From: Candidatus Omnitrophota bacterium
GTDB lineage: Bacteria > Omnitrophota > Gorgyraeia > 2-01-FULL-45-10
Length of the DNA stretch: 45,201 bases
Assembly (NCBI GenBank): GCA_026387165.1
Contig: JAPLMG010000015.1
Location: 1-45,201 of the forward strand
Reading direction: 5' to 3'
Positions 3,039 to 45,201 of the stretch are shown here, one piece after another; positions within the stretch are counted from its first letter, which is position 1, and the number at the start of each line of letters is the position of its first letter. Made by a program: the position numbers and the translations under genes. Below the pieces are notes generated by a model that was not told the DNA's origin, ran no database searches, and was given only the letters and a program-made list of their open reading frames with translations.

Positions 3039-6000
3039 ATGAATGCTTGGCAGGCACGCCGAAAGGCGCCTCAGAGTGGAGATGTAGAGGAAGTATTATC
3101 ACGCGGCTCTTTATCCACGCGAGAAGAGTTGGGGGCGAGATCGCTTATCATGGATCTGCAGAGCCCCCGTAATAAGAAGTGGATAAGATCGATCGCTCTT
3201 GTTTTAGTCGTCTGCTTTATCAATCAGGATCTCGTCTGGGCGCAGGAAGGAACTCCCGTTTGGTCGAAAGGACAAGGCCACTCGACAGGCTCAGGGCCCG
3301 GCGGGAATTTTGCTGTAAAGACTCAGGCCGTCACCCCCCAGGGCGGCATAGCCATCCCCAAAGACGTCGCCGTCACGAAGGAAGTATACAAATCCACAAA
3401 CGGCGATGCCAGGACGGTCATCAATATCCAGGACGCCCACGCATCGTTAGCCGCGCAGGAATCGATAGCATCCATCCTTGATTCATTGGTAACCAATTAT
3501 GACCTGAAGCTGGTAGCCATAGAAGGCTCTAAAGGCTATATCGATACATCCCTGCTGAAGACATTCCCTGATGAAAATATCCGCAAGAACACGGCAAATT
3601 ACTTCATGAAGAAAGGCAAGCTCTCCGCGGGCGAATTCTTCTCCATCACATCCGACAAAGAGATCTCCCTGTACGGCATTGAAGATAAGCGGCTCTATCT
3701 GGAGAACGTGGAGCAGTTCAGGAAGATCCAGGAGATAAACGAATCGACCAAAAAAGATATCGCCAATCTCACGGCCGCTCTGGAAAACCTGAAAGAGAAG
3801 ATATATTCCAAGGATCTTTTGCTTTTGGATAAGAATTCAGTACTGCACAGGGACGGCAAGATAACATTCAGCGAAAGGTGGGACCTTGTAAGTAAATTGG
3901 CTGCCACTCAAGGTGTAACTTACGAAAAGTATGAGAATCTCAGCAAGCTTGTGGAGTCGCTGAAATTAGAAAAGAAGATAGACTTCCAGAAGGCGAACAA
4001 GGAACGTGACGCGCTGATAGACATATTGAGCAAAAAGATGGTTAAGACCGACCTCGAGCAGCTCGTCCTCAGGAGCTTATCTTTCAAGCAGGGAAAGGTC
4101 TCGCAGGGCGAATATTATCTCTACCTTCAGGAGCTCGCCCGGCATTACGGCGTGGACCCGGAGCCTTACAAAGGCCTCATAACTTACACCGAATATATAA
4201 CGCTGTATGAGTCGATAGACCTTGTAGAGATATTCGAGGAAGTGAGGAAGTTCGAGGACTCGATAAAGGAGAAGATCCTGAAAGATGACTACCAGAGAAA
4301 GCTGCACGGTTTCTCGAGATTTGTCTCTTTAGTCAGCACCCTGTATGAGCTGAAGCTGACCGGCGCAGATACGGGCGAGCTGATTTCCTATATTCCGTCA
4401 TTGCGAGGCCGCGAAGCGGCCGAAGCAATCTCTAAAGGCGGGATTGCTTCGCTCCCTTCGGTCGCTCGCAATGACAAAGAGTTGTCTATCAGCGCAGAGA
4501 CGTTGGCGGCATTCATAAAGAGCGCGTCCCTGAAATACGGCGTCGCGATAGAAGGCGGCTATGACTTAGGCGCGATATTCGCGGAGATAGAGCCGGCGCT
4601 TTCATTCTACAGGACCGCGGAAGAGAGAAACGCCGCGATGCTCGCCAACACGATCAACGAGATGCAGAAGAACGGCCAGAGCGTGGCGGCCTTAGTCACC
4701 GGCGGCTACCATACCAAAGGCCTCACGGAAATTCTAAAACAGAGAGAGACGTCCTACTTAGTCATCCTGCCGAAATTCGATTCATCCAAGGGCGACAGGC
4801 CGTATGTCGCGATACTTACCAATAAGAAGGAGCCTTATGAGAAACTGCTGCAGACAGGGGATTATTATCTCGCGACAACGTCATTCTTCGCCACGCAGGA
4901 CAATTTCAACAACGCGGCCGACATAAGGGCATTTATAAAAGAGCTGGTGCTGGTGGCGATGGCCCAGGCCGTACTGGAAGAAAAGAATCCGAAAAGCGTA
5001 GCTGAGATATGGTTAAACGCGTATGAGGGCAGGCAAAAACAGCTGGGCCTTAGAGACAGCGAAGTGCTATTCACAAGAAAAGAGCTGGAAGGCCTCATAG
5101 GTTCCGTTGAGATCTTAACCATAGAAAAAGGCAAGACGGCGGTGGCATCCATACCCACCGTGAGCTTACGCGGCGAAATCGGCAAAGAAGCGCTTTATTT
5201 GAAGGTCGTCAGGGCAGCGGACGAGACCGGCGTTGATATCGGAGTTCCGACATCCGGGGAATTGGCGAGTTTAATAGCCGCTAAGAAAACTTTAGAGAAT
5301 AGAAGGCCAGTGGTAAAGCCGGATGATCTTGAGGACCGCGTCGCGCGCTTAGAGCAAGAGACGGAAAAACTAAAGAAATATATCAAGACACAGGGGCCGC
5401 AGGATGAAGCTCTCATTATAGCGCGCTTGAAAGAAGCCGGATTATTCCAATATCTGGTCGGCCAATTCGAGGGCCAGCCCGCCGACAAGATAACCGGGGA
5501 CAGCCTGATAGCAAAACTGCGCGCCAAAGGCGTGAGGGTCAGGGACTTCGAGGGCTCCGCGGAAGTTTACGGAGAAGTTAACAGCTTATTGGAGAGGGTC
5601 AAGGCCGCCTCAGCGTCCCAGCTTGCAATCACCGAACTTGCCACCGGAGGGCTTATAACAGCGGCCCGACAACGCGCAATAGAACTGGCAATAGGTGTCG
5701 ATGGTAAAGCCGACATATTACAAGTGCCGCCAGCCGTGCCCGTGGCGCCGGCGCCCGCGCCGGCAGCTGAGGCTGAAGCAAGCGAAGCGCAGCGGGCATT
5801 GATCTTGGCTTGTCTTACCGAGCCATTGAACGAAAATTATAAGCGCCTTATAGATATATTCACAACCAGGAAGCAGACAAGATCTATATCGGACAAAGAG
5901 CTGGTCATAATTGATGAGAAACTTAAGACAGCCCTGGCAGGACAGCTCTCAGGGATATTGCCCGGCAATCCCGCGGTTGCTGAAAATTTGATAGACGACG

Positions 6001-9000
6001 AATCTTTCCGGATCTTCAAGAACGCCTTGCAGGCAGAGCTTAATAAGATAAGAAGCCTCGTTCGCGGCCTCGTCGAGATGTGTAAGGATCTACCGGATGA
6101 TGAAGTTCCGGAAGTTGTCCAAGAGCTGAAAGGGGTTTATGAGCCGGTAGACCCGGGAGAAGGTGTCCCTATAGATGTAGGACGGCTTGTTGATAAAATG
6201 CTTGGAGATAGGCAGATCACGTTTGCTTTGGCGCTTCTGCGTAATATAGATAGAATGGCGAGAGCTGGTAGAAGAGAAGAAGCTATTGAATCGATGAAAA
6301 AATTTGACAGTTTCTTCCCGTCCGATAGTGATGCGATGAAAGATCCCGGGGTAATGGCCGAACGCGGCAGAATAAGAACACTATTAAACATAGATGAAGG
6401 AATATATATCCGCGAGAAACCAGGGAAAGGCCCGGGACTAAAAGGCACAATAAATCTTTTATGGCTCGGAGCGGGGATAACATTCCTCTACCATATGGTC
6501 AAGTCGGCAACACCGGCGCTCGCCGAAACAGGGCAAGGGGTGCAAGCGATAATGGGTTCCGGGATCCATGAGGGCGCTAGAGCCGGACTCGCTGCTATAA
6601 GTACAGGTAATCTTGCCGTCGCGATCTTCGTCGCAGTGGCGGCATTTTTGATATGTATGGAAGACTTTGGTATTTCCAAGCGTAAGCAGCCCGCCCCGCT
6701 GTTTCCCGCGGGTAAGACCATGCTGACCGGTCAACCGCTCGAATGGCAAACGCCAAAGTTCCTTTCGCTGGATAATACGCTTGGAATAATTAACTTCATA
6801 GGCATCATGGCGGTTGCCGAATGCGCAATCGGCGCAGGTATAGGTCTCTTGGGTTTCTGGACGGCCATAGGGGTGTCGTTCGCTTTCGAGTTGGTCATAA
6901 TAAAGACGATCGCAAGATACACGTCCCTAATAGATCTTAAAAAGCATCCTTTCCTGAATATGGCTATTGCTATCCTTTACAATAAGATATTTTCGAAAGT
7001 TTTTATAGGGGCCGCGGCTCTTCTCCTTATCAACATGGCGCGGCCGCCAACGCAGGGAGAAGAGATCCGAGCCATGGTATATACCGGCCAGTCCCGGCCG
7101 ATGTGGAACAGCATCTACCGGATAGTCATGTTCATTGCGCTGAACTTTTTCATATACGCCTTTCTGGTCGTTCTCGGCAGAGCGATAAGGAAGTGGAAGA
7201 AGGAGCCTCTGCCGGAAAGCAATGTGAATGAGAAAGATAGGTCATTCTACAGGAGGCTCAATCTCTTTTTAGGGATAGGCAATATTTCGATACCGGCAAT
7301 AATTCTCATGTTATTTTGGCAAAGGTACGTTAGAATACTGCCCGCCGCTTTTCGGATAGCGGTTCTTTCCTTGGGCACAGTAGTTCTGCTGATGATGTCG
7401 CTCTCAGCCTTAAAATCATATTTCAGCAATAGGAAGGCATGGGCCATGGTCGAGCTGAGCGAACGCATCATAACTTCGAGACGGGATCGCCCGGTAGACT
7501 GGTTGCTTAGAGGGCTCATGAGAAGGTCCAAAATTGGCGCGGGCATTTCTCTTGAGGAGGCAGATAAAGCCAATACTAATCTTAGATTGATAGCCATCGC
7601 TCTGGACGAGCTTGCCCGCAAACTGCGTCTCGGAGGAGAATGGGCCGTAGATGCGGTTATAGCAAAGGCAAACTCTGTCTGGAATAGATTTGACGGCATG
7701 AAAGCATTGGAGAAGGCCGATGATAAAGATGCTATAAAGCTACTTGTGCGCAATAGGGCAAAATTAGGGAGTCTTATTTATAAAAAGACGGCGTCTAATC
7801 TGGATCGGATAAATGCTTCTATAGGTGGTATCTTCGGAGCGGGCATTCTCGCAAGAGCGATATATGAAAGACTTATCAGGGGCGAGACGCCCCTTCATGA
7901 GCCAGGCGTAATACAAGCGGGGATAGGAAATAACCTTTTAGTGCTGTTTGCCGTACTGGCGGCTGTCGTTACAGCTATTGTCATAGTGGTAAAAAAGCTC
8001 AAGGGAACGGCAAAGCAGATCGGTACTGTCAAAGAAGAGAATGCCGCAACGAAAAATGCCAGACGTAGGATTAGAGGAGCAAGTACTGCAATAGAAAACG
8101 CGAAAAGACGCGGGGAAATATTAAGAGAGGCTCAGGCAAAACTCTTAGTAGATAGTTTATATGCCTGCTTAGTGCCGGGGATGCCTCTGGATGTGGCAGA
8201 CGATCTAAAGGGCGCTGTAAGAGAAGTAGAAAGAGCCTGTGGAAAAACATTGACCTCCGCCGTGCCTGCAGAAAAACCCAAAGAGAAACCCGGCCGGACA
8301 GTGCAATCTGCCATTCTCGCGACAGGGCTCGGCATGAAAGTATTGAGCGTATTGAATGTGCTTAATCTCGATCCGGCCGCTGCCGCGTTATTCGGCATAA
8401 TAGGATTAGCGCTCGCCGCAGTAGCGACTATGAGCTTCGCATTTACCAATAGAGCGAATATCCTCTTGTTCTTCGCCCCGCCGGTTCCGGCCCGCGGGCC
8501 TCCGGGCGCTCGTAGACCGGAAGCTGCTCGTCAGCCCGGTAGAGCCGCTCAGCCGCAGCCATCGGCAATAACACCACGGCAAATTTCAACCTCAAAACCT
8601 ACCTTCATCCAGGAGATACCGCTCGAATCCCGCGCGGCACGCCCCAGCGATCCTCAGCAAGCCGCGTTCTATAACGCCCTAAAAGAGCGCGGAATGACCA
8701 TTTCAAAAGGCCAGTTGGCCGCGATAATCGAAAATACCGAAGCGATAGAAGAAGGCCGGAAGATGGTATTCGACCACGCCGCGACAGGCGGCGGTAAAAC
8801 AGTCATAGGCTATGGCACTGCTTATCTCTGGGTTGCGGGAGAACGGGGCAGGCGCGCCTTTGTAGCAACGGCCAAAGATTATGATTCAAAAGACAATGCC
8901 GAGGAAGCGCAAAATGTGTTCTTGACTGATGCCTTAAAAGATAAAAAAATACGCGTTGCTTATATTACAGGCGGTGAAGGCAAAAGAGGCGAAGGCAGGG

Positions 9001-36500: not shown

Positions 36501-39500
36501 AACATAGCCGGCATAGATACTATGGATAAGATAACGCTGATCCTCGGCGACAACGGCAGGATAGGCGATCTTCTATTCATCCAGAGGATGCTCGCCGATA
36601 ATCCGCGCCTTCAGGTCTACGCGATACCCAGGGCAAGGCGCTTTATGGACGCGATTACTAGCGAGGATATCGAGAATCTGTTGTTGGGCAAAGATGAGCT
36701 GCGCAGGTCAATGCTTACCTATATAAAATCGAAGGTAAAGAAGGTTATCGACGCCCTTCCGGACAAAGAAAAAAATGAGAAGAAGAAAAAGGAAGGGCTT
36801 TTAAAGGAACTTGCGGGTATAGACGTATCCATCGACGGATCGTATGCGCAATTGAGAACATTCATAGAAGCCAATATAGATGACAATGAAAAGAAAGACG
36901 TTTTAACTAAAGATCTTAGCGCTCTCCCTGATATCGATCCTCTCAAAGGCCTGCGCGAAGCGTGGTTGATGGGGCGGTTTATCCTCGTGGAGGACGGGCC
37001 TGCCGGTGAGGGCATCGACTTAGAGACCGTCTCGGAAGGCGTCGCGGAGGCGCTGTCCGGCGCCGACCGGGTGATAGCGCCCGGCGCGAATAACGCGGCA
37101 TCGATCGCGGCGAGCCGCCTGCCGACCGCGGCAGCGCGCGAAGAGGCTGTCGAAGTAACGGAGTTCGTGCCGCTGATGTCACGCAAAGAGCGCGTCGCTT
37201 CATGGAGCGAAGGCCAAAAGAGGATCGCCGGGCTTTCGGCGCAGGGCCAGAATTTTGTGGTGGCGCTCTTCGACATAGATCATCTTACCAAGTACCACAC
37301 CGCCTACGGAAGAAATCAGCAGCTTGCCGGAAAGGTCAGGATAGTGATAGCCGATATCATCAAAGATATGGAAAAGAGCCGGCTCTATCCCGGTATAAAA
37401 GTGGAGCAGTTCACTAAAAAAGGAGATGAGTCCGCGCTGATCATCAGCACGACAGACAATTCGCCGCTCGACAGGGCCGTGGCAGCGCGGGTATTGGAGC
37501 ATATAAGGCGGGAAGTCGCAAAGGGCACATTCAGGCGCTTCGGCAAGGCCACCATCACAGGTCTGGCGGGATTAAGCGCGAAGAAGATAAGCCAGATAAA
37601 GAGCGTTCTCGGCGCCAGGTTTGCGGTGAAAAACGGTTCAGCCGATATAATCTTCGATTTAATAAAAGGTGAGAAGCCGGAGGAGGCGTGGAAGAGGCAG
37701 CTTGAAATATGGAATGGCCAGCTTACGGAAAAAGGCCTTAAGATAGGCGGCGACTTTAAGCATATCGTGCCCGCCTTCACCATCTCACTCGGCGCCGCGC
37801 AGAACAACGCTGTTGACGGAGCGATATACAACTTGACCAAAACACTGCAAACCAATGTCGATAAAGCCCAAAGAGATTTTGAAATAGCCAGACAGAAAAT
37901 ATCGGATATTTTAGCAGCGCTTTGCGCGACTCAAGATGAGCGTGAAATGATCAGAGATATAATTTATAGAATAAAAGACGTGGACGATATCGGGTTTTTT
38001 GTACAAAATATCGCGGAAGATAACATCCTTTTTAAGTTAGATGATCTGATTTACAAAATTCGGAATATGTTAGATAGCGAAAGAGTAAGGTGTATTAAAG
38101 CTTTGAGGCGACACTATAAAGAGCGCGAGAGAATGATAATAAATGAGCTAAATAATATAGCGGATAACACGACTACTATAGATGCGCTACAGTCGAATAT
38201 AGATAAAAGCTTTGCGGAGATATCCGGGCTTAAAGTTTCCGAAACTGACAAGCAATTTATTATGGGTATTCTGCGGCAGTTGGGTATCAACGTATCTCAA
38301 AAATATGCTAGAAATAAAAATTTGAATGGTATCCTGAAAGATGAATTGGCCGGCAGCATCGCTAAATTGAAAGAATATTTTAGAGGTAAAAGGCGTAAAG
38401 TAAATGAGGACATAGATAATGTAGATAATGTGCTAAAAGGCGCGACGGATATATCGGATGTTGACGCTACAATAGAAAAAGTTTTTGGTCACTTGGGCGA
38501 TTCAGAATACGGAGCTGCATATAAAAAATTTGTGCGCCAAATGGGCGAACGGATAAGAGAAAGATTCGGGCGCGAAAGAGGCGAAATAGGCCCTTATATA
38601 TCGCCGTCTTTGAGTTCTATGGAAGATATATCCAGGTTAAGGAAGATTTTCGAGAGACATAACGCTGCAGATTTACTTAATGTAGCTGATGATGTTTGGA
38701 AAAATTTTGTTAGCATACGAAAATGTATGGCAGGAATTGTGGATGATGAATATGAACGTAATTTGAAGGGTGCTTTAAACATCTCAGAATTGCGGAGATA
38801 CGCTAACAACACTGTTGTGAGTGTTCACAAAGCACTGCAAGTAGCGGCTAATGACCATGAGGCAACTTTATTAGAGAAAAAATATAGGATCGTAAAAATT
38901 CTAACGCCGTTTATAACTCGAGATAGAAATTTTGCTTTAATAAATGCTGCCCAAAGCCCCGAAGACATTCGTCCTGTACCGATACAAGTTCGCGCCGCTA
39001 AAGCCGCAACTTTGGCTAAAGACAGAGGTAGAAATAAAATTGCGTGGTCTGATGACGTGCGATATCCTCAAGGTGTTGTAGAAACATTCTCGCCGCCTGA
39101 AGTTTTGAGGGAAACGACAGAAGAGATAGCGCTGACGGCAGAAGAGGCCCCGAAAGCTCCGCAGACAACTCAGCCGCCGGCCCAGGCCCCGCCCGAGGCG
39201 TTGTCGATAACTCCGCAAAAAACATTTTTACAAAGAATGTTTTCTTTCCTAAGGAATCCTGCGAATATTTCAATTATTCTGATAGGCGCCGCGCTATTAC
39301 TCATGCCGGGATGCACTTACTATACAGCCGCTTCATCTATGCCGTGGTTTCAAATCGGCGCTTTCGTTGTGCCGTCACTGCTTGCTTTGGGACTTGGCAC
39401 TTTCTATTTATACAGACGAGCGAAAATTAAAAAGTATATGAATGAATTGGAAGACAAGGATTTAAATGTTAATGATAGAGCCGCCAAAGCTCTTATAGCG

Positions 39501-42500
39501 TTAAGAGCGCTGCCCACAAAAACAGAATTTACGGTTATTAAGCGCTTAAGAGATTTATCGTACCTATACGACGAGCCATTACTTGAAGATGCTAGAAATG
39601 ATTTAGTAAGAATGGGGAAGGCTGCAGAGCCTTATCTTGTTAAAATATTCGAAAATAAGAATTCAAGACTACGCAGGGCGGCTATAGGTGTTCTTGGTAG
39701 GATCGGTGTAGTTCCTGTCCTCATAAAAGCATCAGAAGATAATGATTTTTACATTCGTGATTTCGCTTATGAGGCGCTTGAAAGATGCAGAGCCTTAAAT
39801 GTAGAGCTTAAGGTTAAGCGATATTTAAAAGATTTAGAAGATGGTAATAAGCGTATTAGTAAATCAAGCGCCTTACTCGCACTCGGCAATATTGGCTCTA
39901 AAGCCGAAGAGGCCGTTCCTGCCATAATAAGATTGTTGGAATATGGAGACGAGAATGATCGTACCAATGCTGCTGATGCATTAGAAAAAATTGGCGCTCT
40001 TACCCCAAATCTTGCTGTGCGCCGATACATAAAAGATCTTGATGGAGTGCGCGACGGGTGCGGTTTCCGTGGAGAGGCTGCCGCTAAAGCGCTTGGCAAC
40101 CTAGGGTCTGAATCCAAGGAAGCCATACCTATTTTAACAAATGCATTAGAAGGTGAGCACTCAAATGTTCGCCAGGAAGCTGCCGCCGCATTGGACAAGC
40201 TCGGAGCCTTAACTGTAGAGCTTAAGGTTAAGCGATATTTAAAAGATTTAGATGAGAATCTCGAGGGTTCTCAATCTCGTATTGTTCGTTCATTAGCGGC
40301 TGAGGCTCTTGAAAAACTTGGTGCTTTCAGCACAGAACTTAAAGTAAGACTATATATAGCTGAATTAAAAGACCTCTTTTATTCTTATGATGATCGCAAG
40401 CCCGCGATCGAAGCTCTAGTAAAAATTGGTCAATCTGCGACTCCTTCCCTCTTAAAAGAATTAGACAATGATCGATATAATATTCGAAGTGCTGTTGCGG
40501 AAACCCTCGAAAGACTCGGAGCCTTAACCGTGGAGCTTAAGGTTAAGAAATATTTAAGAGATTTAGAACATGGTGATTTTAGTTATATTGATGAAAATTG
40601 GCGCTACCGTGGACTAGCCGCAGAAGCTCTCGGTAAAATGGGTCCAGAAGCCAAGGACGCAATCCCCGCTCTCATCAAAAGCTTGACAGATTGTCAGCCA
40701 GATAATCGAATCGTTGCTAGTGAAGCTCTTGTTAAAATAGGAAAAGTCGCTGTACCAAACCTCATCAAAGCATTAGAAGATAGTGAAGAATACGTCCCCA
40801 GTTTCGCCGCCGACATTCTTGGTAAAATAGGCCCTGAAGCAAAAGAAGCTGTCCCCGCTCTCATCAAAAGCATGACAGATAATAAGTCGCCTTATAGAGG
40901 CGCCGCTGATGAAGCTCTTGTTAAAATAGGAAAAGCCGCTGTCCCAGGCCTCATCAAAGTATTGGAAGATAATAATAGCGTTGTCCGTGGAAGTGCCGCA
41001 ATGGTCCTTGAAAAACTAGGGTCATTAACAGTAGAGCTCAAAGTAGCGCGGTATCTTAGTGATTTAAGAGATACAGATAACTCTATCCGTAAAAATGCCA
41101 CCGAAGCTCTTGTTAAAATAGGAAAAGCCGCTGTCCCAGGCCTCATCAAAGTATTGGAAGATAATAATAGCGTTGTCCGTGGAAGTGCCGCAATGGCCCT
41201 TGAAAAACTAGGGTCATTAACAGTGGAGCTCAAAGTGGCGCGGTTTATAAATGATTTAAAAGATAAGGATAGCTCTGTTCGCAGCTGTGCCGCTGACAAC
41301 CTTGGTAAAATAGGTCCGGAAGCTAAAGAATCAGTTCCCGCTCTCGTAAATGTATTAAAAGATAATGACAATGACGTTCGCCGCAATGCTGCCGCAAGCC
41401 TCGGCATAATAGGGGATATACAGGCCTTGCCGGCCCTTATTGGCTTGATAAACGACTACAAAAGCGGCCCTGCGGCAATAATGGCCATTGCCTCCATTGT
41501 ATTTAAAAATAAAAGCGTCTTATCAGAAGATGCTTGGAAGTCTATAATATCTCAGAGTCATATCGACTTAGTAGTAGATATTTTCAAAAAATATCCGGAT
41601 TTATTTAATCAAGATATACAGTGGTTGAATGCAATAAGGCGTCTTATTGAACAGATAAACGAGGAGATTAATATATATCCTGCAAGCGAACAGGAATCCG
41701 TCCGCAAACAGATTTGCGGCAGCATAGACAACTATATCAAAATGTTTGTCCCTGATAACAACGCAGATCGCATAATAACGGAATATAAAGAGATCTCTTC
41801 TCTTTTTGAAATAGTCCACGATAACCTACCGCTATGCCTTGATTCTTTAAGGCAAATCGGTCTGAATATGGCCTATTTCGAATCATTAAGAAAGGCGCTT
41901 CCTTTGAATAATGCCTTGACCAGAATATTAAGGATGCTCGGAGAAAGTGAAAGTGCAATAGGCGGTTTCAGAGATGTTACAACAAAAGTCCAAAAGTCCG
42001 GTAACTTTGGCAGGCTATATTCAATGATAGTTGATGTGGCCAAGAGAAAACAAAGGACCGCCCCCCAGGAAGTATCCGGCCTACTTGAGATATTAAGATC
42101 ATTAGGTAACATTTCAAGATGGAAAGAAAAAAAATGGGAGCGTATTAAAGGCCAGATAGAAAAGTATTACTCATCAGGCTTTAAAGTTATCACATATAAT
42201 CTGTTCAAATACTTTGTAGAACACGAAAACGATGCAGCTGCCTTGTTCACGATGAAAGAAGATATACAGAAACAGTTAGGTAATATCGGATGGGGTGGTT
42301 TCGCTGGATTAACGGACGATTTTAAAAAGAAATACGGCATAACCACGCGGGATGAGATAGCGCTGTTGGCTAAGTATATGGCTATATCAAACCTCACCGC
42401 ACGAGATTATGCCGGTAAATATGAGGATATCAAAAAAGTCCTCGCTAAAAGGGGCGGCGCATGGAAAGACGAAATTGATGAAGGCTTACGAGAACTATTC

Positions 42501-45201
42501 TCTTTAAGAGGAACAAAGAGCGTTGTTGTCTATCAGCCTAAAGATGCGGAGAGAGTTGATAGAGCGGCCCTCCATGGCCGTCTTAGCGCTTACGTTAAAG
42601 ATGAAAATATAAAAGATCCTATTAAGGTTATTCGGGAAGATATTCAAGGGGCTGTGATATCGAGTAGAGAGGCTCTTAAGCAAGCTTTGTTAGCATTTAC
42701 TATACGAAACAGCCAACTCGACAGAGCTTACTATACTGAAACTCCTGGCACAGAAGCTGACACACAAAGATGGCTTACTAGATGGCAAGCTCTTTTAACA
42801 GATGCGTATAAACACGATGCATTCGATAAAATAAGAGATGTGGTGCGTAAAACTATAGATAAAACTAGCGGCAAACGATTGACTGAGCTGATAGCTAATA
42901 ATAATATTCCCGAATTCTTAAGTGTAAAAGACAAGAAAGAATTATCCAAAGAAGATAGTGATATGATCTCTGCGATATCTGATACCAAAGTATCCCCTAA
43001 GCAAAAACAGGATGCGTTATCCTCTATATTCTTGAATAAATGGATGGTTTTGGTAAATACTGATGAGTTAAACGATAAAACATTAATGGTCTCATGGATA
43101 GATAAGGGCTTGGGTAAATTAGCAAGAAGGCTGTTTGAAAAGGCGAAAAAGAAAAATCAGGCGCTTGATCTGACAGAAAGCTCTGTTAAAGATATAGTAC
43201 GGACTGCTTTGCTTGAGGCGGCAGATAATATGAGCGCAAGCCTAAAAGGAAAGGCCGATATTGACAGAAAGAAAGTCTTCCTTGCCGACAGAGTAAGCCA
43301 GAATTTGCGAGATCTATTTAAACAGGATATTAATGACATAGGAAAAGGATTAAAAGGATTTAAGACTGTCGAAAGGGAAGTCAGCAATAATTTATATACT
43401 GGTTTCTTTGATGATCTCTTGCATCTCATGGGATTCATGATGACGGGTGTATGTACATGGGCCGAAAGAGATAAGCAGGTGGCATCGCAAAATTACCATT
43501 TCGGGAAGATTGCTCTCAAAGACGCTACGGGCAGGATATTGGGCTTATCTCAGGTTCAGCTTCTCAAATGTGGCATTCATGGAGTAGCAAGGAAGCAGAC
43601 ACCTAAGGGATGGCGAGTAATAGCGTTGCCGGGCACTAACCTTTATCAGGGTGATATCGGTATGGATAAGGAGAAAGCATTGCTCGCATTATTCGAAACC
43701 GCTCAAACTTTGGCTGAAAAATCGGGCATGGAAGGGGCCGTGTTGCCGGTCAATCCCAACATTCACTCAAATTACGGATTTGAAAAACAGTTTATACAGA
43801 AACTTGTATCTAAAGGGTGGCTTAAAAAAACCACCTTAAGCAAAAACATCAATCTTACGCCTGCAGGATATGCTTATGAGGAAGTGTATCTTATAGCTAT
43901 CCCTAAGGAAGAAACGTTCTTGGTTTCATCATCCCTGGAAGAGAGGATCGACAAGGAAAGGCTTCAGACAGAAAAGGCGGAAAAGGAGAGGACGGTTTCT
44001 ATAAGGGGCGATCTGATAGAATTAATATATGAAAAAGAAATCCCTGAAGAGACTGTATCTGTTGTAAGAAAAGAAATAGAGACTTTGATTTCCAAGATGC
44101 CGCAGGGATTAATAGGGAACATTGGCCTCAATGCTTCATTAAAGGACGTCTCCATCAAGATACGCATAGACTCCGGCGCTGATAAGAGCAGTGTTAATAA
44201 ATCCGAAAATGAAATCGAGTTGACCTTAGCTAAAGACATCCTGTATAAAGAGGGCAAGGTCGAGATAGTAACTTTGAATGAAATGTTATCAGAATTATTC
44301 GCGGCATTTATTTTAGATGATTATGCGCAGTTAAAAGAGAAGTCCCGCACAAATGAAAACGCCTATTTTAAACTTGAACTTGTTAAGACGCTTTTGGGCT
44401 ACAAAAGATACCTCGCCAGATACCATAAAGTTATAAATAAATACGCGTGGAATGAACATAATTATCTCGGCGAAAAATCCGCTGAAGCACAGAAGGCGTT
44501 ATTTACCAAGTATAACGCCGATCTTGATGGATTCACGGAAGGCATGCGGGATATCTCGCAGTGGAACATGTTTCTGAATGTTATGGATGACTCCGACCCG
44601 GACTTCATGGTAATAAACTACGCCCACATACTTTTAAGTGATCCCGTATTTAAGGAGGATGATGTAGAAAAGATAATAACGGATATGGCAGGATCCAATA
44701 TTTTAAATAAACCGAGCATAGCTCATCTGAGGAATTTGATAAAAGATTTCATTTTAAATGGAAAAGCTCATGTTAAGATAGGCGACAAGATTGAAACGAA
44801 AGAGGCATTTACTCACTTTGACAACACGCGGGCATCATCTGAATTAAAAGATGTGCTTCTCACCACCAAAGATCAGGATGAGTTTTATGGCACGTTAAAA
44901 AGTTTGCTCGAAAGCAGTCTGTTGCTCACTACTACAAATATAAACGAGGAAATATCGAGGCTTATTGACAAAAACATATTTAGCTCACCAAGCAGAGAAG
45001 AGTCGATTAGGGCAGCTCTTACAGAAATACTCATACGAAGAATAGGTAGAAGCGCCTTCATGAGCTTCAAAGAACACGAAACGGGCAATAGAGGTTATAA
45101 GGATATACCGCGTATTAAAGTTAATACCTTGAGCTTGCCTGAAGGGATCGATGCAGACGAATATGGATCTTTGGGTGAAGACGACTTCCAGGGTCCGGTC
45201 G
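21120..45201 (+). CDS. Giant multi-domain membrane protein, part 2 (over 8,027 aa, 3' end beyond the window): OEP-like repeat, TM clusters, NTase-like, GGDEF-like, HEAT array
   Basis: Frame 0 stays open from 21036 to the window end by my own translation. It is not in the ORF track, most likely because no stop falls inside the window. First ATG is 21120, and upstream in-frame alternatives are GTG 21057 and TTG 21099. None has a strong SD, there is no N-terminal signal peptide, and there is no terminator or gap after the part 1 stop. Confidence 0.85.
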   Translation, partial: MQRLVGVEIRIPIITGGEQQANQRITELELSNIRSSLSDENREVFDELYAMFTELERTLKDLEGSEIALAWAYENYENARKDLERGAIDEIAYVAAIKALNGAEIRYTATRDSYIKLDTLLRARLNSYGLTNKEIAEMERDARGKEGVEEAARAGAARKAEAIKAVEPARDAELRRLEEKEREAVVIAQKREERERARGQNPLEKQRLTESERAAQALLKGALDADAEKAENTMKYRVRSEIFKDAIITPKYATGVKSYYSIAMESLLTTIGMPFGVTGDGWERAVKIDDWLDVVNSYVVTHNAQFNMNNRLSLMEQTYKGLSPAEKDQLERISRRPNQPIRWDRHWEGYFTSAQINTLNILFKGNERKIASQYLDDGKINPAWIGLSKIGILSYAANRQIADSTKSALGVVKEILANEAIFDREQRFRDPKSEEDKNWPDKDKALDGYTEWLRKTRLSLDNIEFLNIPESAKLADGGPIYQVRRLIKNIFGNERAIFGDYTGRGSVEVWNLYRLLSRLAKPGTERGQYKGLENILKLLHGLVVEGRGSLLDFYGQYDEKRLKALPEALNLRKLIDEREDYRAALEAARPGDDSAALKERLNSKEAQIQREMDILREGRLYGNALSVLRFALESPENSDILAKLGTGDLASGDTDKIMDFVSYYYKTMDTALPYLERVYDDLPNGTIDRDNPEHIGILSHFYSLRAANKWTDDETRYLLQRLVSAKEEAKEFLAMLRNTMVDQITFDSKDTGTVGFLFGHVFARIQNGWDKTAIRDRIPIMGMIKPCLEAYHGYKIDDKGTPEEQADKIGNLLYWNKFLKENLKDDFELFKDILSNRKAVSQAIKEADREQLETALAQADKRTEAEKFAIAVAILKDQKLEECVRADIEERRTVAGRALSPGEETAVRAAAEKAFNELYGLHMMGPRYVEAAKLADAEKDRRVKKLNKEFGQIYALYMAERRLFTETKKAVRSKALEALYVIDPSTQERRAEIDKELMELEKKDEEEFLRLYKSGFISSVADALIVDAGFVRLTGKASIVKNISDVGNVIALRNLLTSLKDEGILAAAEKGMDFELERRRYLDKRRGEIEASLKKADVSLDENTKKSYMKTSEESFAHIYGQGVINSRTNSFFLEGRADPALVKKVLYAEYFVDKLAKLNWRPLNAGEVGNWSWDLMEMIYLTEKQRKLPEAEKAAMLSADLKDAFDIADWEASAGRVLEAKKHMANLFSMIDRVQRERVKAVDATKKYLAKKEKTADGAFKLLFTALEGISEADLKKAGISEAERAEIEALRGKIGALRKMTEESDASKQPSLREDIERADRSKDDFLRLDREVKRETELGVALSDIDALLLRAASLDAGVVKELKEAIIDLGTARTSVTKDGENEFGAAYPSDAAESFVEGLFKKFDKVFEELRKAKERELKDGKSLYEKVKAVEGRLREELRKEELAGSEFATGKAYIDRVNQRLDELRQKVRGTWSSRSLAVKRANLENLQKALEDAKLFYNLDTYRKKHNDEFSVSSGQLRYEKILEQLISESMPSDALAARLASLIEIDKKKLEGETINGVYLNSVYRANGKELETGELGFFQGEIRESVHLGELRKAYEDDLIKKENKTKEEASVLGEWFLRERIGKYVRYEALVTGLEELLMRDQGITDMNSPEAKRLRMTRGQKIGLFMSLEKRVWKEEEEIAYLKEWFKDASLVQTFAGEHLGYRLAHSLLSYTVEVMRSGFGMPVLMNSVDRLSIEFQKAFPYQMAYMNIGDHLRSMEAALWNERELSVIPDDSMTDLILENTFYRNGDLDRVYRAEAIGQLYSFHNQVSYRLSMADYGKDKVTYRDLENTAKALDSVMMPEIAYNAANGIPKLTKDWMRKNKETLDGWFEGRRGEKDARKARALKYENSLKNPDNIPAALKETGDELSKAWKARGNTDPMNEDLAWYFQKIMLSTGISAEDLLKVTYEYPADIEKVWEEVNGRKPTEAESGKIKYYASKMDLDGWTLNYVKTILVYGNYISGLMETLRSAKPTEVEVENLVRLAIDNGILPADPSIPEAKGGLGIEIDSLSVGALLDKKMPLARVIDLTKTIHSKINSPKISIDDVLYLVGLAMDTNIAKPPEEERFSLSREEVRGVVARQFTKERIDLGEFENHRSVIIDGITDALIGKRIHPVNFVILVDRTLALRDAIIKAAADKEVDSEVRPKLEMTRGGFEMLAVLDQQALDINKIIGIADIEALGMGRGSAKYTLTENAVKEPVNSLRRMLINKRIETKYKATKDFVKNNLLKDLKRPEDFKAKLAADVVGEDLVETKRGADGKEYFNVKNNEDAKKFIDKKIGEQRGKEDGDRGSFWRASSYVAGAFSVFVAIYGIGLIRRALRKRDKTAKEKIAAGEAGALAPPPEGAGIEGASPGAGEASLSTAERRTDKGPAPKKEKLAALGRYLVFALKLSTTFVVLYTFSHEFRITMIWCASSGIFIGALAISIILLYSTIKLLSGRFPLFKGELRKYAGLHIKIANFIKLPSTKISEKIKEMESYSDSFRDSAGIFALRLLKVPVGLVTGLIGTGVRLGVPLFPAGYFIWQSGAFTLFAANNVMIFLLVFMLISTVVSKGWDLLVSASKLAFMYLKNSVSEGSYTAPQMKEARHAALTASFNLAVALAANIGTLIYIYFTQNWFASMPWLLAIAALAFTYCNYCVAYILVSALVYGLMAVITACRPGKKPLWDISSYKLIEKIKRVPKKYFTTVYNMGAMKVDDDFRTVMGTTTRSFENNVHMTEVSGEGVPYLRKNSSGKKFAYDTTDNLSMMVKVTSGYFDNTKDSFVKTLRDTLRLRREYGRGKAGIIFTNTDAARADLAGMKPHCYRDDFKYLLEGWNHPHVYVSISDIDVDNLEMITGAVDTSGNFTGRVIATKDDEYFIDNATGEAVLKDGRILKPGEYIRDEKFNIITDYFLRPIGPIARNDPKYKEKYSDESKYYRKKKIVNINGADLDVRVSTETYYVDADDPSIRYRLIKGDLYDDRTGVPVLTKDMYEKSPRHGYLLNKRTKQRIDRGLDGKSLPERVVTVTEQKVFAKNAAQNRIDIYTLTKDGKLLDPSGKLFADIRSISSIRTLYETFKLDKDGSLKKTSDPDMEITDKEDPLASNDGRRFELDVYSVISKELLDQFVDKTDAGGYVTEASKNTEKISKDEWRVDAASGDALMKDGLIVARRGTWRRDKEGNLYIGGISQEDADIFLKEGNLLDVDCLNIGKNGREETYFISTDTVRGIPVASSAGKKDFGAKKEFERFAKEVNGGYLVNAADGFRVVDGKLVQYQKDGIGFDEEKKYVIGENFETTVQDSVAVDPLTGELFQSQRIAKHDTYWHLNDEEKGRNVFRIRKILARLEDVYFDGSGNAKKKGGLDKPVETIAGAGTFVLDEDGNLRSKNVTAEDAAIIQPSTFEAKDITTDHKSGDLIVKKRIAGANEFDINEKGLAVRLPGAGGQAIANIGTFLLKADRGEILDKEGRKVEPDYSIQLAAQIDNKNEYPADHIGRIISRAVNDMEGEEEVGMYQPLIDYPNFGKSLYSRFQGWAQSILSYINMSDFAVFGESSAVGKMTFNINRYNNDVTEKKVIPYNVRSHDFWEAMFTKTARLMGTEEEKIRVLETTPSSFFAQVIRSKRWIDGDVLALKIEYWPVKALFEILRFRPVDAIGTIARGLHRGITGKTHISAESKMHIGAIIRGLISEPVFFFWLFILGVTATIIPGVMTASGPMISLWVLSTVLIILIGQKAVVPIWKEVWEKRGSRAFRALGAVLGAGFSVTAIGLGALHFIPYAKEASFAVAGVLILIAAVRYANKMIRSRHLMRGIVPIAVLAAVIIMAVFLYINPPFAIELALTKMQSAVWIVDFFKWIPKSMPFIVSAILIVKAVGWRADVLSKRGSEQDIKNADILRIVPRAFYIFKRAVWETILGTGILMVLILYKPKYLLDGIKKIFEGERFVWFTMIQGERMVAKGYKLSRAYGEYKWAPILGVTILVATILYMTLGAYFPAFRILDPALAFKGLPIFIFSWIFGPGIAWYSAQYGGSAGHREPAFMHSVSEFRSSLKAKPLDAYGAIEKIRDILKDSGEFNIDVDRSRMYLLYLTQIDFSRDERGLKLESYLSSVLRSANLTDMEQELKDQLKWWEPGFENEWDSITELLRVYLLDRAVRAAAKDGKAAELAYLIGQIDEDRQNLIRAVNDIVRRISPRKIGETYWVYASLSEKQDFVRKTVELHIKDAAKRAEAIGHISKLLALTPEEEVKRLIKMQDSFDAERATELQNAVKEEEGKAPEKKKGIPNRRKEMFRATIEPFGRLDDIRVLGISFSWGLSRRLKGISGEIYREGLTGADRMKVIRRHRKFYGRLLALVGGDARNEERTEKEMLELYDYLVKRDASIRLKADADVMIDRLKKEEEKLKENAFKQFVLEEWDKVVAFMKGRSAIERRPIKKDEDARKASRELLEKSISEAIGKAAGGLTGEELTSKREWTLDRGSRDLEAGEGDGKIAADGALARFMAAAGEDVVVFGGAVRNAIMHKEEDTEEFDIFIRAGDPTDEEMREIYRKSKEYMKDRRALDELIYRLQADPRFKERLAQHLRSVTVDMLYGINGIRRDNMLEEVLYRYILYEAVRDLLMRKAITVIAAEAAVLGCDPEALQQGMAIVDGKLVRIAGFLDGSGDIFAIPGNEDVFFDIPELTMNRLAVGKKDGNYTLYDQYGGETDIKSKALRLNFSDGVKDEAGLMIIFRALRFIKQYEEAGFKPDGALTKLLEEFFKKPKDFGIDSLEELLLKLYEFTADAEEADALLESVGALKFIKDKGIDLDDIKKEALTAQELREKELAVTELRAAELADEESSQTVIGLLSWVGLLAVTGEKKIAIAAGAAAGVPTAAAKPAGGYAKGGAKAPAAPAGTAPASAAAKPAGGYAKGGKVAPAQAAGTEASQVSVPTGKSLLRAEQVALDILLGRVLQKPAEKPGTEKAIEDGYEPGPKAKAFMQRYLGKDYKSGEKLLGLGYRKMKKFSNDLDKIIEDEIERRAIKDEEEIRYVKYIISRIVNWKPVYLGHKVRRDLTVNEYYILNWRALEIALMLLDRQGFEKKNKELAEEKRLANMKSLLTGHAPEANIAGIDTMDKITLILGDNGRIGDLLFIQRMLADNPRLQVYAIPRARRFMDAITSEDIENLLLGKDELRRSMLTYIKSKVKKVIDALPDKEKNEKKKKEGLLKELAGIDVSIDGSYAQLRTFIEANIDDNEKKDVLTKDLSALPDIDPLKGLREAWLMGRFILVEDGPAGEGIDLETVSEGVAEALSGADRVIAPGANNAASIAASRLPTAAAREEAVEVTEFVPLMSRKERVASWSEGQKRIAGLSAQGQNFVVALFDIDHLTKYHTAYGRNQQLAGKVRIVIADIIKDMEKSRLYPGIKVEQFTKKGDESALIISTTDNSPLDRAVAARVLEHIRREVAKGTFRRFGKATITGLAGLSAKKISQIKSVLGARFAVKNGSADIIFDLIKGEKPEEAWKRQLEIWNGQLTEKGLKIGGDFKHIVPAFTISLGAAQNNAVDGAIYNLTKTLQTNVDKAQRDFEIARQKISDILAALCATQDEREMIRDIIYRIKDVDDIGFFVQNIAEDNILFKLDDLIYKIRNMLDSERVRCIKALRRHYKERERMIINELNNIADNTTTIDALQSNIDKSFAEISGLKVSETDKQFIMGILRQLGINVSQKYARNKNLNGILKDELAGSIAKLKEYFRGKRRKVNEDIDNVDNVLKGATDISDVDATIEKVFGHLGDSEYGAAYKKFVRQMGERIRERFGRERGEIGPYISPSLSSMEDISRLRKIFERHNAADLLNVADDVWKNFVSIRKCMAGIVDDEYERNLKGALNISELRRYANNTVVSVHKALQVAANDHEATLLEKKYRIVKILTPFITRDRNFALINAAQSPEDIRPVPIQVRAAKAATLAKDRGRNKIAWSDDVRYPQGVVETFSPPEVLRETTEEIALTAEEAPKAPQTTQPPAQAPPEALSITPQKTFLQRMFSFLRNPANISIILIGAALLLMPGCTYYTAASSMPWFQIGAFVVPSLLALGLGTFYLYRRAKIKKYMNELEDKDLNVNDRAAKALIALRALPTKTEFTVIKRLRDLSYLYDEPLLEDARNDLVRMGKAAEPYLVKIFENKNSRLRRAAIGVLGRIGVVPVLIKASEDNDFYIRDFAYEALERCRALNVELKVKRYLKDLEDGNKRISKSSALLALGNIGSKAEEAVPAIIRLLEYGDENDRTNAADALEKIGALTPNLAVRRYIKDLDGVRDGCGFRGEAAAKALGNLGSESKEAIPILTNALEGEHSNVRQEAAAALDKLGALTVELKVKRYLKDLDENLEGSQSRIVRSLAAEALEKLGAFSTELKVRLYIAELKDLFYSYDDRKPAIEALVKIGQSATPSLLKELDNDRYNIRSAVAETLERLGALTVELKVKKYLRDLEHGDFSYIDENWRYRGLAAEALGKMGPEAKDAIPALIKSLTDCQPDNRIVASEALVKIGKVAVPNLIKALEDSEEYVPSFAADILGKIGPEAKEAVPALIKSMTDNKSPYRGAADEALVKIGKAAVPGLIKVLEDNNSVVRGSAAMVLEKLGSLTVELKVARYLSDLRDTDNSIRKNATEALVKIGKAAVPGLIKVLEDNNSVVRGSAAMALEKLGSLTVELKVARFINDLKDKDSSVRSCAADNLGKIGPEAKESVPALVNVLKDNDNDVRRNAAASLGIIGDIQALPALIGLINDYKSGPAAIMAIASIVFKNKSVLSEDAWKSIISQSHIDLVVDIFKKYPDLFNQDIQWLNAIRRLIEQINEEINIYPASEQESVRKQICGSIDNYIKMFVPDNNADRIITEYKEISSLFEIVHDNLPLCLDSLRQIGLNMAYFESLRKALPLNNALTRILRMLGESESAIGGFRDVTTKVQKSGNFGRLYSMIVDVAKRKQRTAPQEVSGLLEILRSLGNISRWKEKKWERIKGQIEKYYSSGFKVITYNLFKYFVEHENDAAALFTMKEDIQKQLGNIGWGGFAGLTDDFKKKYGITTRDEIALLAKYMAISNLTARDYAGKYEDIKKVLAKRGGAWKDEIDEGLRELFSLRGTKSVVVYQPKDAERVDRAALHGRLSAYVKDENIKDPIKVIREDIQGAVISSREALKQALLAFTIRNSQLDRAYYTETPGTEADTQRWLTRWQALLTDAYKHDAFDKIRDVVRKTIDKTSGKRLTELIANNNIPEFLSVKDKKELSKEDSDMISAISDTKVSPKQKQDALSSIFLNKWMVLVNTDELNDKTLMVSWIDKGLGKLARRLFEKAKKKNQALDLTESSVKDIVRTALLEAADNMSASLKGKADIDRKKVFLADRVSQNLRDLFKQDINDIGKGLKGFKTVEREVSNNLYTGFFDDLLHLMGFMMTGVCTWAERDKQVASQNYHFGKIALKDATGRILGLSQVQLLKCGIHGVARKQTPKGWRVIALPGTNLYQGDIGMDKEKALLALFETAQTLAEKSGMEGAVLPVNPNIHSNYGFEKQFIQKLVSKGWLKKTTLSKNINLTPAGYAYEEVYLIAIPKEETFLVSSSLEERIDKERLQTEKAEKERTVSIRGDLIELIYEKEIPEETVSVVRKEIETLISKMPQGLIGNIGLNASLKDVSIKIRIDSGADKSSVNKSENEIELTLAKDILYKEGKVEIVTLNEMLSELFAAFILDDYAQLKEKSRTNENAYFKLELVKTLLGYKRYLARYHKVINKYAWNEHNYLGEKSAEAQKALFTKYNADLDGFTEGMRDISQWNMFLNVMDDSDPDFMVINYAHILLSDPVFKEDDVEKIITDMAGSNILNKPSIAHLRNLIKDFILNGKAHVKIGDKIETKEAFTHFDNTRASSELKDVLLTTKDQDEFYGTLKSLLESSLLLTTTNINEEISRLIDKNIFSSPSREESIRAALTEILIRRIGRSAFMSFKEHETGNRGYKDIPRIKVNTLSLPEGIDADEYGSLGEDDFQGPV
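28150..29260 (+). other. Transmembrane cluster 3
   Basis: Example segments: YVAGAFSVFVAIYGIGLI, LVFALKLSTTFVVLYTF, MIWCASSGIFIGALAISIILLY, VPVGLVTGLIGTGV, FTLFAANNVMIFLLVFMLISTVV, LAVALAANIGTLIYIYF, WLLAIAALAFTYCNYCVAYILVSALVYGLMAVI. Confidence 0.7.
29780..31630 (+). repeat. Degenerate beta-hairpin-like repeats (D-x-x-G-x-L type) in the roughly 1,000-aa loop between TM clusters 3 and 4
   Basis: Recurring short motif: FIDNATGEAVLKDGRIL, LIKGDLYDDRTGVPVL, IYTLTKDGKLLDPSGKL, FKLDKDGSLKK, WRVDAASGDALMKDGLIV, WRRDKEGNLYI, VNAADGFRVVDGKLVQY, VAVDPLTGELF, FVLDEDGNLRS, LLKADRGEILDKEGRKV. Confidence 0.3.
32260..33285 (+). other. Transmembrane cluster 4
   Basis: Example segments: PVFFFWLFILGVTATIIPGVM, MISLWVLSTVLIILIG, LGAVLGAGFSVTAIGLGALHFI, FAVAGVLILIAAV, IVPIAVLAAVIIMAVFLYI, MPFIVSAILIV, ILGTGILMVLILY, ILGVTILVATILYMTLGAYF, LPIFIFSWIFGPGIAWY. 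Confidence 0.7.
34690..35430 (+). other. Class-II nucleotidyltransferase head domain (CCA-adding enzyme / poly(A) polymerase family-like)
   Basis: VVVFGGAVRNAIMHKEEDTEEFDIFI compares with the GGxVRD...DxD motif. ELTMNRLAVGKKDGNYTLYDQYGGETDIKSKALRLNFSDGVKDEAGLMIIFRALRFIKQYEEAGF compares with D.TiNA.A....G...D..GG..DL....iR......F.EDplRiLRA.RFa..l.F. The spacing between the two motif blocks (about 170 aa) is longer than usual. Confidence 0.6.
35805..35921 (+). repeat. Two copies of a 36-nt unit (AAAKPAGGYAKGG), period 81 bp, just after a single TM helix
   Basis: GCCGCAGCCAAGCCGGCAGGCGGATACGCAAAAGGG (35805-35840) against GCCGCAGCCAAGCCTGCAGGCGGATACGCAAAAGGC (35886-35921), with 2 mismatches. The preceding helix is VIGLLSWVGLLAVTG. 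Confidence 0.85.
37245..37810 (+). other. Degenerate GGDEF-like (nucleotide cyclase palm) domain, signature KGDES
   Basis: VVALFDIDHLTKYHTAYGRNQQLAGKVRIVIADII compares with l.l.DiDhFK.iND.yGH..GD.vL. FTKKGDESALIISTTD (KKGDES at 37416-37433) compares with R.GGDEFail. PAFTISLGAAQ compares with vtvSiGvA. An insert of about 90 aa precedes the last strand. Confidence 0.5.
39264..39415 (+). other. TM hairpin (two helices) preceding the HEAT array
   Basis: ISIILIGAALLLMPG and WFQIGAFVVPSLLALGLGTFYLY, followed by a basic RRAKIKK. Confidence 0.6.
39447..41500 (+). repeat. HEAT / PBS-lyase-type repeat array (about 680 aa)
   Basis: Many units of the form xxVRxxAAxALGKIGxxAKEAVPALIKxLxDxx, for example NDVRRNAAASLGIIGDIQALPALIGLIND. 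They are interleaved with a recurring LGALTVELKVKRYLKDL segment, whose DNA copies lie near 39793, 40206 and 40522. Confidence 0.75.
40930..41263 (+). repeat. Near-identical tandem duplication inside the HEAT array (142-bp core, period 192 bp = 64 aa)
   Basis: 40930-41071 against 41122-41263 shows 3 mismatches in 142 bp (GTC/GCC, GTA/GTG, GTA/GTG). An older diverged copy starts at about 40726. Confidence 0.9.

Follow-up and report, generated by a model that had tools for sequence, protein, structure and literature searches.

A TAG-interrupted reading frame of 14,054 codons on a Candidatus Omnitrophota contig, the probable 5' part of a giant membrane-threaded multi-enzyme gene

The contig JAPLMG010000015.1 from the assembly GCA_026387165.1 of a Candidatus Omnitrophota bacterium is 45,201 bp long and was analysed in its full length, referred to here as the window. 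Three genes at its 5' end are followed by a single forward-strand reading frame that starts at position 3039 and runs to the end of the contig. Stop mapping in all six frames assigned 14,054 codons to this frame (3039-45200; codon numbers, k, are counted from 3039) and detected only one stop within it, exactly as the original prediction had stated. In the phase of 3039, 40 stops occur up to 2988-2990, the frame is open from 2991, and the only stop between there and the last base is a TAG at codon 5999, which splits the frame into 5,998 and 8,055 codons. In-frame stops that might have been overlooked between 21036 and 45200 were not found. The remaining five frames contain 331-1,123 stops apiece, and at about 6% stops per codon the chance of an open run of 8,055 codons is near e^-498. 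Opposite-strand open reading frames (ORFs) of at least 100 amino acids, which are numerous, were regarded as shadows of the long coding frame. The region 3039-45201 is probably the 5' 42 kb of one giant Omnitrophota gene of a known membrane-threaded multi-enzyme class, interrupted by the TAG and lacking its 3' end, where the contig stops. Its features are collected in Table 1.

The start at 3039 is sound because a GAGGA sequence is located 9 nt upstream and five homologues share the initial Met of ORF1, the first part of the frame. GC content at third codon positions (GC3) is unlike that at positions 1 and 2 throughout the frame, and Pfam domains were found on either side of the TAG and also within the last 7 kb; the frame is thus coding throughout. 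As the analysed stretch is the entire contig, the frame leaves at the contig end and not merely at the end of the window, and the missing 3' end reflects assembly fragmentation. An exact 61-mer from the 3' end matched nowhere in genome, metagenome and viral contig collections, so that the contig could not be extended. The public records list ORF1 under the name hypothetical protein and as the sole member of its cluster. The second part had been described as missing from the ORF list because it is open-ended, which is correct, since ORFs leaving the source are unlisted; exact look-up with eight start guesses retrieved no record for it, a weak test in which GTG and TTG starts are rendered as V and L. 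Public annotation under-reports such genes: a hypothetical protein of 5,998 amino acids and an open-ended remainder are what is left once a single stop masks a frame that extends over at least 14,054 codons.

Table 1. Features of the giant reading frame. Positions refer to the contig, codons (k) are counted from position 3039
Feature	Position	Strand	Codons	Remarks
ORF1, first part of the frame	3039..21035	+		5,998 codons + TAG, ATG start; MCX5666756.1, locus tag NTY34_00360
N-terminal signal anchor	3180..3236	+	k48-66	four K/R residues before it
Conserved head domain	3321..4913	+	k95-625	restricted to Omnitrophota and close neighbours
Transmembrane (TM) cluster A	6612..8432	+	k1192-1798	about 10 hydrophobic segments
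SecA-like ATPase motor	8706..10388	+	k1890-2450	between TM clusters A and B
Walker A of the motor	8778-8801	+	k1914	AATGGGKT
DEAD motif of the motor	9180-9191	+	k2048	followed by NRTPCVISG
Second nucleotide-binding domain (NBD2) of the motor		+	k2250-2450	matches SecA/SecA2 models and PDB chains
TM cluster B	11277..12365	+	k2747-3109	about 10 segments
Stretch of 5,267 residues without hydrophobic segment	12366..28166	+	k3110-8376	houses GH192 and OEP modules and the TAG
GH192-like beta-1,2-glucanase (alpha/alpha)6 barrel	13452..14672	+	k3472-3878
Catalytic D3590	13806-13808	+		aligns to D149 of EeSGL1
Catalytic E3662	14022-14024	+		aligns to E221 of EeSGL1
Gly/Ser/Pro-rich linker	20352..20537	+	k5772-5833	~60 residues, about 150 residues before the OEP repeat
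OEP (TolC-family) repeat	20988..21494	+	k5984-6152	spans the TAG
In-frame TAG	21033..21035	+	k5999	inside the OEP repeat, no intergenic space
Second part of the frame	21036..45200	+		8,055 codons, stop-free, reaches the contig end
TM cluster C	28167..29204	+	k8377-8722	about 6 segments
TM cluster D	32241..33170	+	k9735-10044	about 7 segments
PolyA_pol-type nucleotidyltransferase head motif	34716..34847	+	k10560-10603	GGAVRN...EEFDIFI, marginal
ARMT1-like (DUF89) damage-control phosphatase-like domain	36438..37100	+	k11134-11354	26.3 bits, cut-off 25
Putative GGDEF-like palm of the original prediction	37245..37478	+	k~11403-11480	FDIDHLTKYHTAYG ... KGDES; motif resemblance only
Low-GC3 tail	37839..45200	+	k11601-14054	change point at codon 11601
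HEAT-repeat array	39348..41498	+	k~12104-12820

The N-terminal head domain carries two nearly invariant motifs, QDAH...EG...G and FY..A..R...GG.H. A genome scan with the head-domain alignment led to 105 confirmed relatives, from which 80 loci were kept; nearly all of these are Omnitrophota metagenome-assembled genomes (MAGs), a few being labelled Planctomycetia, Auribacterota or 'bacterium'. The closest head proteins are 72-81% identical and are short contig-end fragments named Omnitrophica or Omnitrophota. Together with the NCBI records of ORF1 and the three upstream proteins (MCX5666753-56), which carry the name 'Candidatus Omnitrophica bacterium', these relatives support the earlier assignment to the giant-gene kind reported from Omnitrophota. 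The phylum-restricted head domain offers a possible search key for the protein family in fragmented assemblies. An AlphaFold model computed from a 39-sequence alignment (predicted local distance difference test, pLDDT, 88) consists of an alpha/beta core with a helical insertion of ~330 residues. Its best PDB fold matches were EreC (6xcs; E=0.025, probability 0.89), 3b55/2rad and HopBA1, none of them at E<=0.001 and with TM-scores of at most 0.29, and a profile search of the PDB with the head found nothing; an erythromycin-esterase-like fold of the modelled domain (superfamily erythromycin esterase/ChaN/TIKI) is a lead only.

Head-domain ORFs range from stand-alone proteins of about 520 amino acids to ORFs of more than 3,900 codons that run off their loci. 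In one locus, L081 (GCA_015231405.1, JADGBR010000028.1, 10001-22568), a head protein of 855 amino acids, a SecA-like protein of 1,483 amino acids and a third protein of more than 2,046 amino acids are encoded by adjacent, separate genes in an operon-like row, the first two of which overlap by 22 nt. The head of L081 is 37% identical to that of the giant protein and the order is the same, head followed by SecA-like ATPase, but the two are separate genes in L081 and fused in the giant frame; the SecA-like gene of L081 shared no similarity with the SecA region of the giant frame in tblastn at E<=1e-4. In two further loci, L066 and L045, the head is fused with a SecA-like part. Split genes in the one case and fused parts in the others indicate that fission and fusion belong to the history of the head-domain family. 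Two head-domain ORFs often stand in tandem in one locus, for instance in L001, L013, L022, L028 and L059.

The predicted signal anchor and four TM clusters were recovered by a Kyte-Doolittle scan, which detected the anchor and about 35 hydrophobic segments residing mainly in the four clusters; a hydrophobic pair at k12070-12119 is uncertain. Judged from the types of domain that it houses, the stretch k3110-8376 between clusters B and C would be extracytoplasmic. Internal self-comparison revealed no large duplication other than the HEAT array, so that the pattern of TM clusters did not arise by one half being copied in tandem. Two weak internal duplications were seen, one at k3186-3396 (12594-13226), which comprises two units of ~100 amino acids with 29% identity (E=3e-5) and sits between TM cluster B and the GH192 barrel, the other between k8933-9022 and k9206-9280 (within 29835-30878; E=8e-4); neither matches a Pfam family. 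The name of the relative P0200 had pointed to a CPBP protease in TM cluster A; this was rejected, as the motifs of such a protease were sought and found absent.

The SecA-like motor proposed from the sequence was borne out by several criteria. Its region matches NCBIfam SecA/SecA2 models at 1e-9 to 1e-5 and PDB SecA chains by sequence, and it carries the Walker A and DEAD motifs. The top 36 PDB fold matches of its AlphaFold model (pLDDT 68.5) are all SecA or SecA2, with E down to 1e-21 compared to 1e-7 for other helicases; the underlying alignment was made from SecA-like homologues, which favours this outcome. SecA/SecA2 and the motor thus share both RecA-like domains, the Walker A, DEAD and RTPxxISG motifs and the predicted SecA fold. 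They differ in that the motor, with scores of 24-36 bits, misses the full-length SecA cut-offs of 725-1,493 by far and is embedded between two TM clusters. The matches end near SecA residue 546-614, and no helical scaffold, wing or C-terminal SecA domain was detected; Pfam SecA_PP_bind was likewise undetected, although an insert after DEAD...RTPCVISG is present and modelled with low confidence. By membership tests the giant protein contains a SecA-like module and is no SecA. Its intact ATPase motifs make the motor a concrete handle on uncharacterised giant genes.

An exhaustive HMMER search with k1850-3049 against 1.84 billion representatives gave 6 matches below 1e-10, one of which (P0001) is collinear with the window. 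Many of the distant matches (P0008-P0150) are proteins of about 620-680 amino acids. Two of them, P0010 and P0011, were scanned and contain SecA_DEAD, SecA_PP_bind and P-loop_SecA and no scaffold or wing; proteins of this type look like short stand-alone SecA-like ATPases. Head, SecA-like motor and TM cluster B apart, the giant protein has almost no detectable relatives.

The glycoside hydrolase-like barrel could be specified as a GH192-like beta-1,2-glucanase. It matches EeSGL1 (PDB 8XUJ) with E=8e-61 over chain residues 44-433 and the Pfam family Glycoamylase (PF10091) with 32.5 bits (cut-off 27). EeSGL1 of Endozoicomonas elysicola is a GH192 enzyme in which D149 and E221 are essential by mutagenesis (PMC12102758); E221 is the general acid and D149 the candidate base, and GH192 is placed in clan GH-S. 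The barrel shares about 400 aligned residues and both catalytic acids with EeSGL1. The latter is an enzyme by itself, with 447 residues in the 8XUJ chain, whereas the barrel is one module embedded in more than 5,000 residues. On the strength of these residues it is probably an active beta-1,2-glucanase, and it provides a handle amenable to expression and assay. The known substrates of GH192-type beta-1,2-glucanases are bacterial beta-1,2-glucans (PMC12102758).

The modules assigned to the last quarter of the frame fared unevenly. The nucleotidyltransferase (NTase) head is marginal: the PolyA_pol profile matches 44 residues and reaches 24.4 bits (cut-off 23) on a 381-residue segment, but only 17.9 bits on a 2,500-residue chunk, and while GGAVRN is present, the DxD position reads EFD. 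The ARMT1-like domain downstream of it also occurs in the 3,237-residue head protein of the closest relative. PDB sequence searches found nothing with the NTase/ARMT1 region or with k6000-10999. The GGDEF-like palm had to be given up, as there is no Pfam match at E<=1, no GG[DE]EF motif (KGDES stands in its place), no GGDEF protein in the PDB by sequence and no similarity in BLASTP to a PleD sequence. The HEAT array was confirmed by HEAT_2 (E=1.7e-64, 8 stretches), by matches to alphaRep structures down to 2e-50 and by its internal repeats. Inside it, at 40628-41276, lie tandem DNA repeats of 189-192 bp, each corresponding to two HEAT units, which are 80-93% identical; such repeats point to recent duplication and are likely to cause trouble in short-read assembly. 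Roughly one third of the length is covered by recognised domains together with the TM clusters; the statement that most of it has no nameable motif holds, as about two thirds is without a recognisable domain.

The composition of the frame is not uniform. GC3 is 0.63 before codon 11601 and 0.38 from there to the contig end (log-likelihood ratio 207), and codon usage of the tail differs from that of the rest with a chi-square of 610 on 60 degrees of freedom, compared to 144 across the TAG. The break lies directly after the putative GGDEF-like segment. It reflects either a mosaic produced by in-frame exchange of modules between Omnitrophota lineages or a chimera of two co-occurring populations. 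According to the latter explanation the last 7.4 kb would come from a lower-GC Omnitrophota population and would have been joined in frame by the assembly, so that 14,054 codons overstate the gene. The abruptness of the change and the codon-usage contrast speak for such an artefact, as do the near-identical tandem repeats of the tail, which are hard to assemble, and the errors known from Illumina assemblies of such giant genes. On the other hand, the frame stays open for 2,454 codons past the join, the break falls at a domain boundary and not within a domain, the tail retains the unusual ATA-Ile and AGA/AGG-Arg preferences of the remaining gene, and there is no evident shared repeat at the join. 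The largest GC3 steps in 52 long ORFs of the related loci amount to 0.15-0.20, many of them where the head domain ends; a mosaic composition may thus be normal for such genes. A chimeric tail is considered rather unlikely. A metagenome scan with k11401-12070, which spans the break, found no relative. In many relatives GC3 of the head exceeds that of the remaining ORF by 0.10-0.20, the shift falling at codon ~520-600.

The second question is whether the TAG at codon 5999 separates two genes, which the original prediction had left open. The evidence favours one. The TAG falls inside an OEP repeat that scores 51.9 bits over profile positions 6-186 when the stop is bridged by X (Pfam cut-off 22), compared to 34.5 bits over positions 51-186 for a 2,501-residue chunk of the second part (ORF2) alone. 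A short construct with the 15 native residues upstream of the TAG scores 50.6 bits, whereas controls with post-TAG sequence only, with shuffled upstream residues, with the TAG codon deleted and with a GTG start reach 41.2, 41.8, 42.5 and 40.9 bits, respectively. The 15 upstream residues are hence worth about 9 bits, and keeping a residue in place of the TAG beats deleting it by 8 bits. The prediction of TolC-like repeats stands for one Pfam OEP repeat and not for the plural: 165 residues upstream give no OEP match at E<=10, and the junction retrieved no TolC from the PDB by sequence. TolC outer-membrane factors have two tandem OEP repeats per protomer, in contrast to the one detected here; by membership tests the giant protein contains an OEP module and is no TolC. 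The Gly/Ser/Pro-rich linker before the repeat contains a 12-bp tandem repeat at 20417-20480.

Further observations argue for a single gene. No promoter-like or terminator-like site was found near the TAG, no spacer separates the two parts, and codon usage is nearly equal on both sides (chi-square 144). A separate ORF2 product would begin in an outer-membrane-type domain, yet its first 2,370 residues contain neither a signal nor a TM segment. In the 80 related loci, no more than 77 codons stay open in frame beyond the true stop of a head-domain ORF (with one short exception), compared to 8,055 here. Finally, two adjacent giant ORFs on an Illumina contig turned into one gene of 74,983 amino acids once a local assembly error had been corrected (West-Roberts et al., 2023). 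Taken together, these points make one interrupted gene a quite probable reading, in which the TAG most likely stems from an error in the consensus or the assembly, or from a nonsense allele of very recent origin, and is not a designed gene boundary.

Some points weigh against a continuous membrane-threaded gene. The base at 21033 is known from the assembled contig alone, and the single OEP repeat extends only 11-15 residues upstream of the TAG. A word-indexed protein search with the TAG junction found no homologue spanning it; this search misses relatives below roughly 50% identity and was also empty for the GH192 segment despite its 1e-60 match in the PDB. The hydrophobic segments come from a simple Kyte-Doolittle scan and not from a topology predictor, and the GC3 break means that the last 7.4 kb could belong to another genome. 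In addition, a GTG at 21057 is preceded by AGGT at 9 nt, the same spacing as at the true start, which makes re-initiation conceivable, and the adjacent but separate genes of L081 demonstrate that splitting of the module chain is tolerated in the family.

The last two points, the variation of head-domain ORFs from about 520 to more than 3,900 amino acids and the public record, which lists ORF1 as a separate protein, are those on which an explanation by fission can build. Two real genes, descended from one ancestral giant gene, would then encode polypeptides of 5,998 and at least 8,048 amino acids, the second restarting at GTG 21057 or at ATG 21120, and the two products would cooperate in the manner of the separate head and SecA-like genes of relatives. 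The position of the TAG within the OEP repeat, where the profile prefers a residue over a deletion, speaks against this, and so do the missing intergenic spacer and the nature of the restarted product, in which roughly the first 45-65 OEP profile positions would be missing and which would carry no signal peptide or TM segment in 2,370 residues despite its outer-membrane-type domain; fission is accordingly regarded as improbable. A decoded TAG, through read-through or codon reassignment, would leave the gene intact as written and suits a lone in-frame stop inside a domain of an otherwise perfect frame, yet it is very improbable indeed, because TAG terminates both the neighbouring AbiEi gene (2814-2816) and the closest relative's ORF, reassignment would let the codon recur where it now appears once in 14,054 codons, and the contig contains no tRNA gene and no Rfam family.

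The single interrupted gene belongs to a phenomenon that has already been published and is closest to the 'Archaeovorin' type and to the multi-enzyme class with signal peptide and TM helices (SP+TM). Giant proteins of the Omnitrophota, tiny bacteria that live as predators or depend on hosts, have as their reported features numerous TM regions together with a divergent SecA DEAD domain, carbohydrate-active domains and HEAT repeats (West-Roberts et al., 2023; Nielsen & Lui, 2026); Kizina (2022) and Seymour (2023) are also cited for this kind of protein. The type sequence of 'Archaeovorin' is a protein of 39,678 amino acids from Velamenicoccus archaeovorus (West-Roberts et al., 2023, bioRxiv 10.1101/2023.11.21.568195). 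With this type the giant frame shares the phylum, many TM regions, a motor of the SecA DEAD type by TM regions, a glycosyl hydrolase, HEAT repeats and domain-less stretches. It differs in that the truncated gene yields only 14,054 codons, and in its N-terminal part, where Omnitrophota giant proteins frequently, though not universally, have a C39 or S8 peptidase; the giant frame has no Pfam match of this sort and carries the head domain instead. For most of the giant protein the searches retrieved no relative by sequence. The 'multi-enzyme metabolic cluster' SP+TM class (Nielsen & Lui, 2026, bioRxiv 10.64898/2026.06.07.730766) resembles the giant frame in its many Pfam families, none of them dominating, in internal HEAT scaffolding and in the combination of a signal sequence with about one TM helix per 400 residues; the giant frame differs in that its MAG is fragmented and the contig ends within the gene. 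According to the same study a SecA_DEAD architecture cluster exists and most long Omnitrophota proteins are sequence singletons (Nielsen & Lui, 2026), and the scarcity of relatives beyond head, motor and TM cluster B agrees with this picture of singletons with shared architecture. Proteins of at least 10,000 amino acids are termed 'long' (Nielsen & Lui, 2026) and those of at least 30,000 'giant' (West-Roberts et al., 2023); the frame, whose 3' end is missing, must have its TAG bridged to reach 14,054 codons and otherwise consists of 5,998 and at least 8,055 codons. The earlier description is largely right, but the present copy lacks its end and may be affected by problems of assembly.

Giant genes have been described from Omnitrophota but are almost wholly uncharacterised and mostly sequence singletons; the modules that can be named here provide handles on them. 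The GH192-type beta-1,2-glucanase and the OEP repeat have no mention in West-Roberts et al. (2023), and PF10091 and PF02321 have none in Nielsen & Lui (2026), so that the TolC-family element is a handle absent from both Omnitrophota surveys. A membrane-threaded scaffold with in-cis SecA-like export has already been proposed for the class (West-Roberts et al., 2023), and the arrangement of modules in the giant frame can be read along these lines. The signal anchor would set the head domain outside the cytoplasm, and the chain would cross the inner membrane in clusters of helices, with cytoplasmic and extracytoplasmic megadomains alternating. Such an alternating topology is favoured because the domain types sort by compartment between the TM clusters. 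Known members of the NTase and ARMT1 families act on nucleotides or phosphorylated metabolites. These two modules, placed between cluster D and the pair k12070-12119, would remain inside, and the SecA-like ATPase between clusters A and B would be cytoplasmic and might help to push the long downstream stretches across the membrane. The TM-free stretch of 5,267 residues would carry the apparently active GH192 module and a TolC-like element reaching toward the outer membrane, and the HEAT array would serve as a binding scaffold. Enzymes and binding arrays may in this manner be displayed toward the envelope of a host or prey, with self-export by the in-cis motor and a presumed action against envelope glycans. 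What the giant frame would add to the proposed model is the probably active beta-1,2-glucanase.

A more far-reaching interpretation is that the polypeptide forms a complete trans-envelope apparatus that unites a SecA-type motor, membrane anchors, a periplasmic beta-1,2-glucanase and its own TolC-like element, encoded by genes that grow or shrink as modules are captured, exchanged or split off in frame. Bacterial beta-1,2-glucans are largely periplasmic glucans of Gram-negative bacteria; if the interpretation were true, the glucanase would be directed against these periplasmic glucans in hosts or prey that are Gram-negative. It fits with the low-GC3 tail, with the split genes in a relative and with a TAG that would represent fission in progress, and is put forward as a doubtful, speculative proposal.

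Three defence-type genes are located directly upstream of the giant gene (268-2816). The first encodes a Bro-N protein with a full-length match to the PADLOC candidate system PDC-S13 (E=2e-129). It is followed by AbiEii (1421-2203) and AbiEi (2196-2816), which overlap by 8 nt and stand in the reverse of the usual order abiEi-abiEii.

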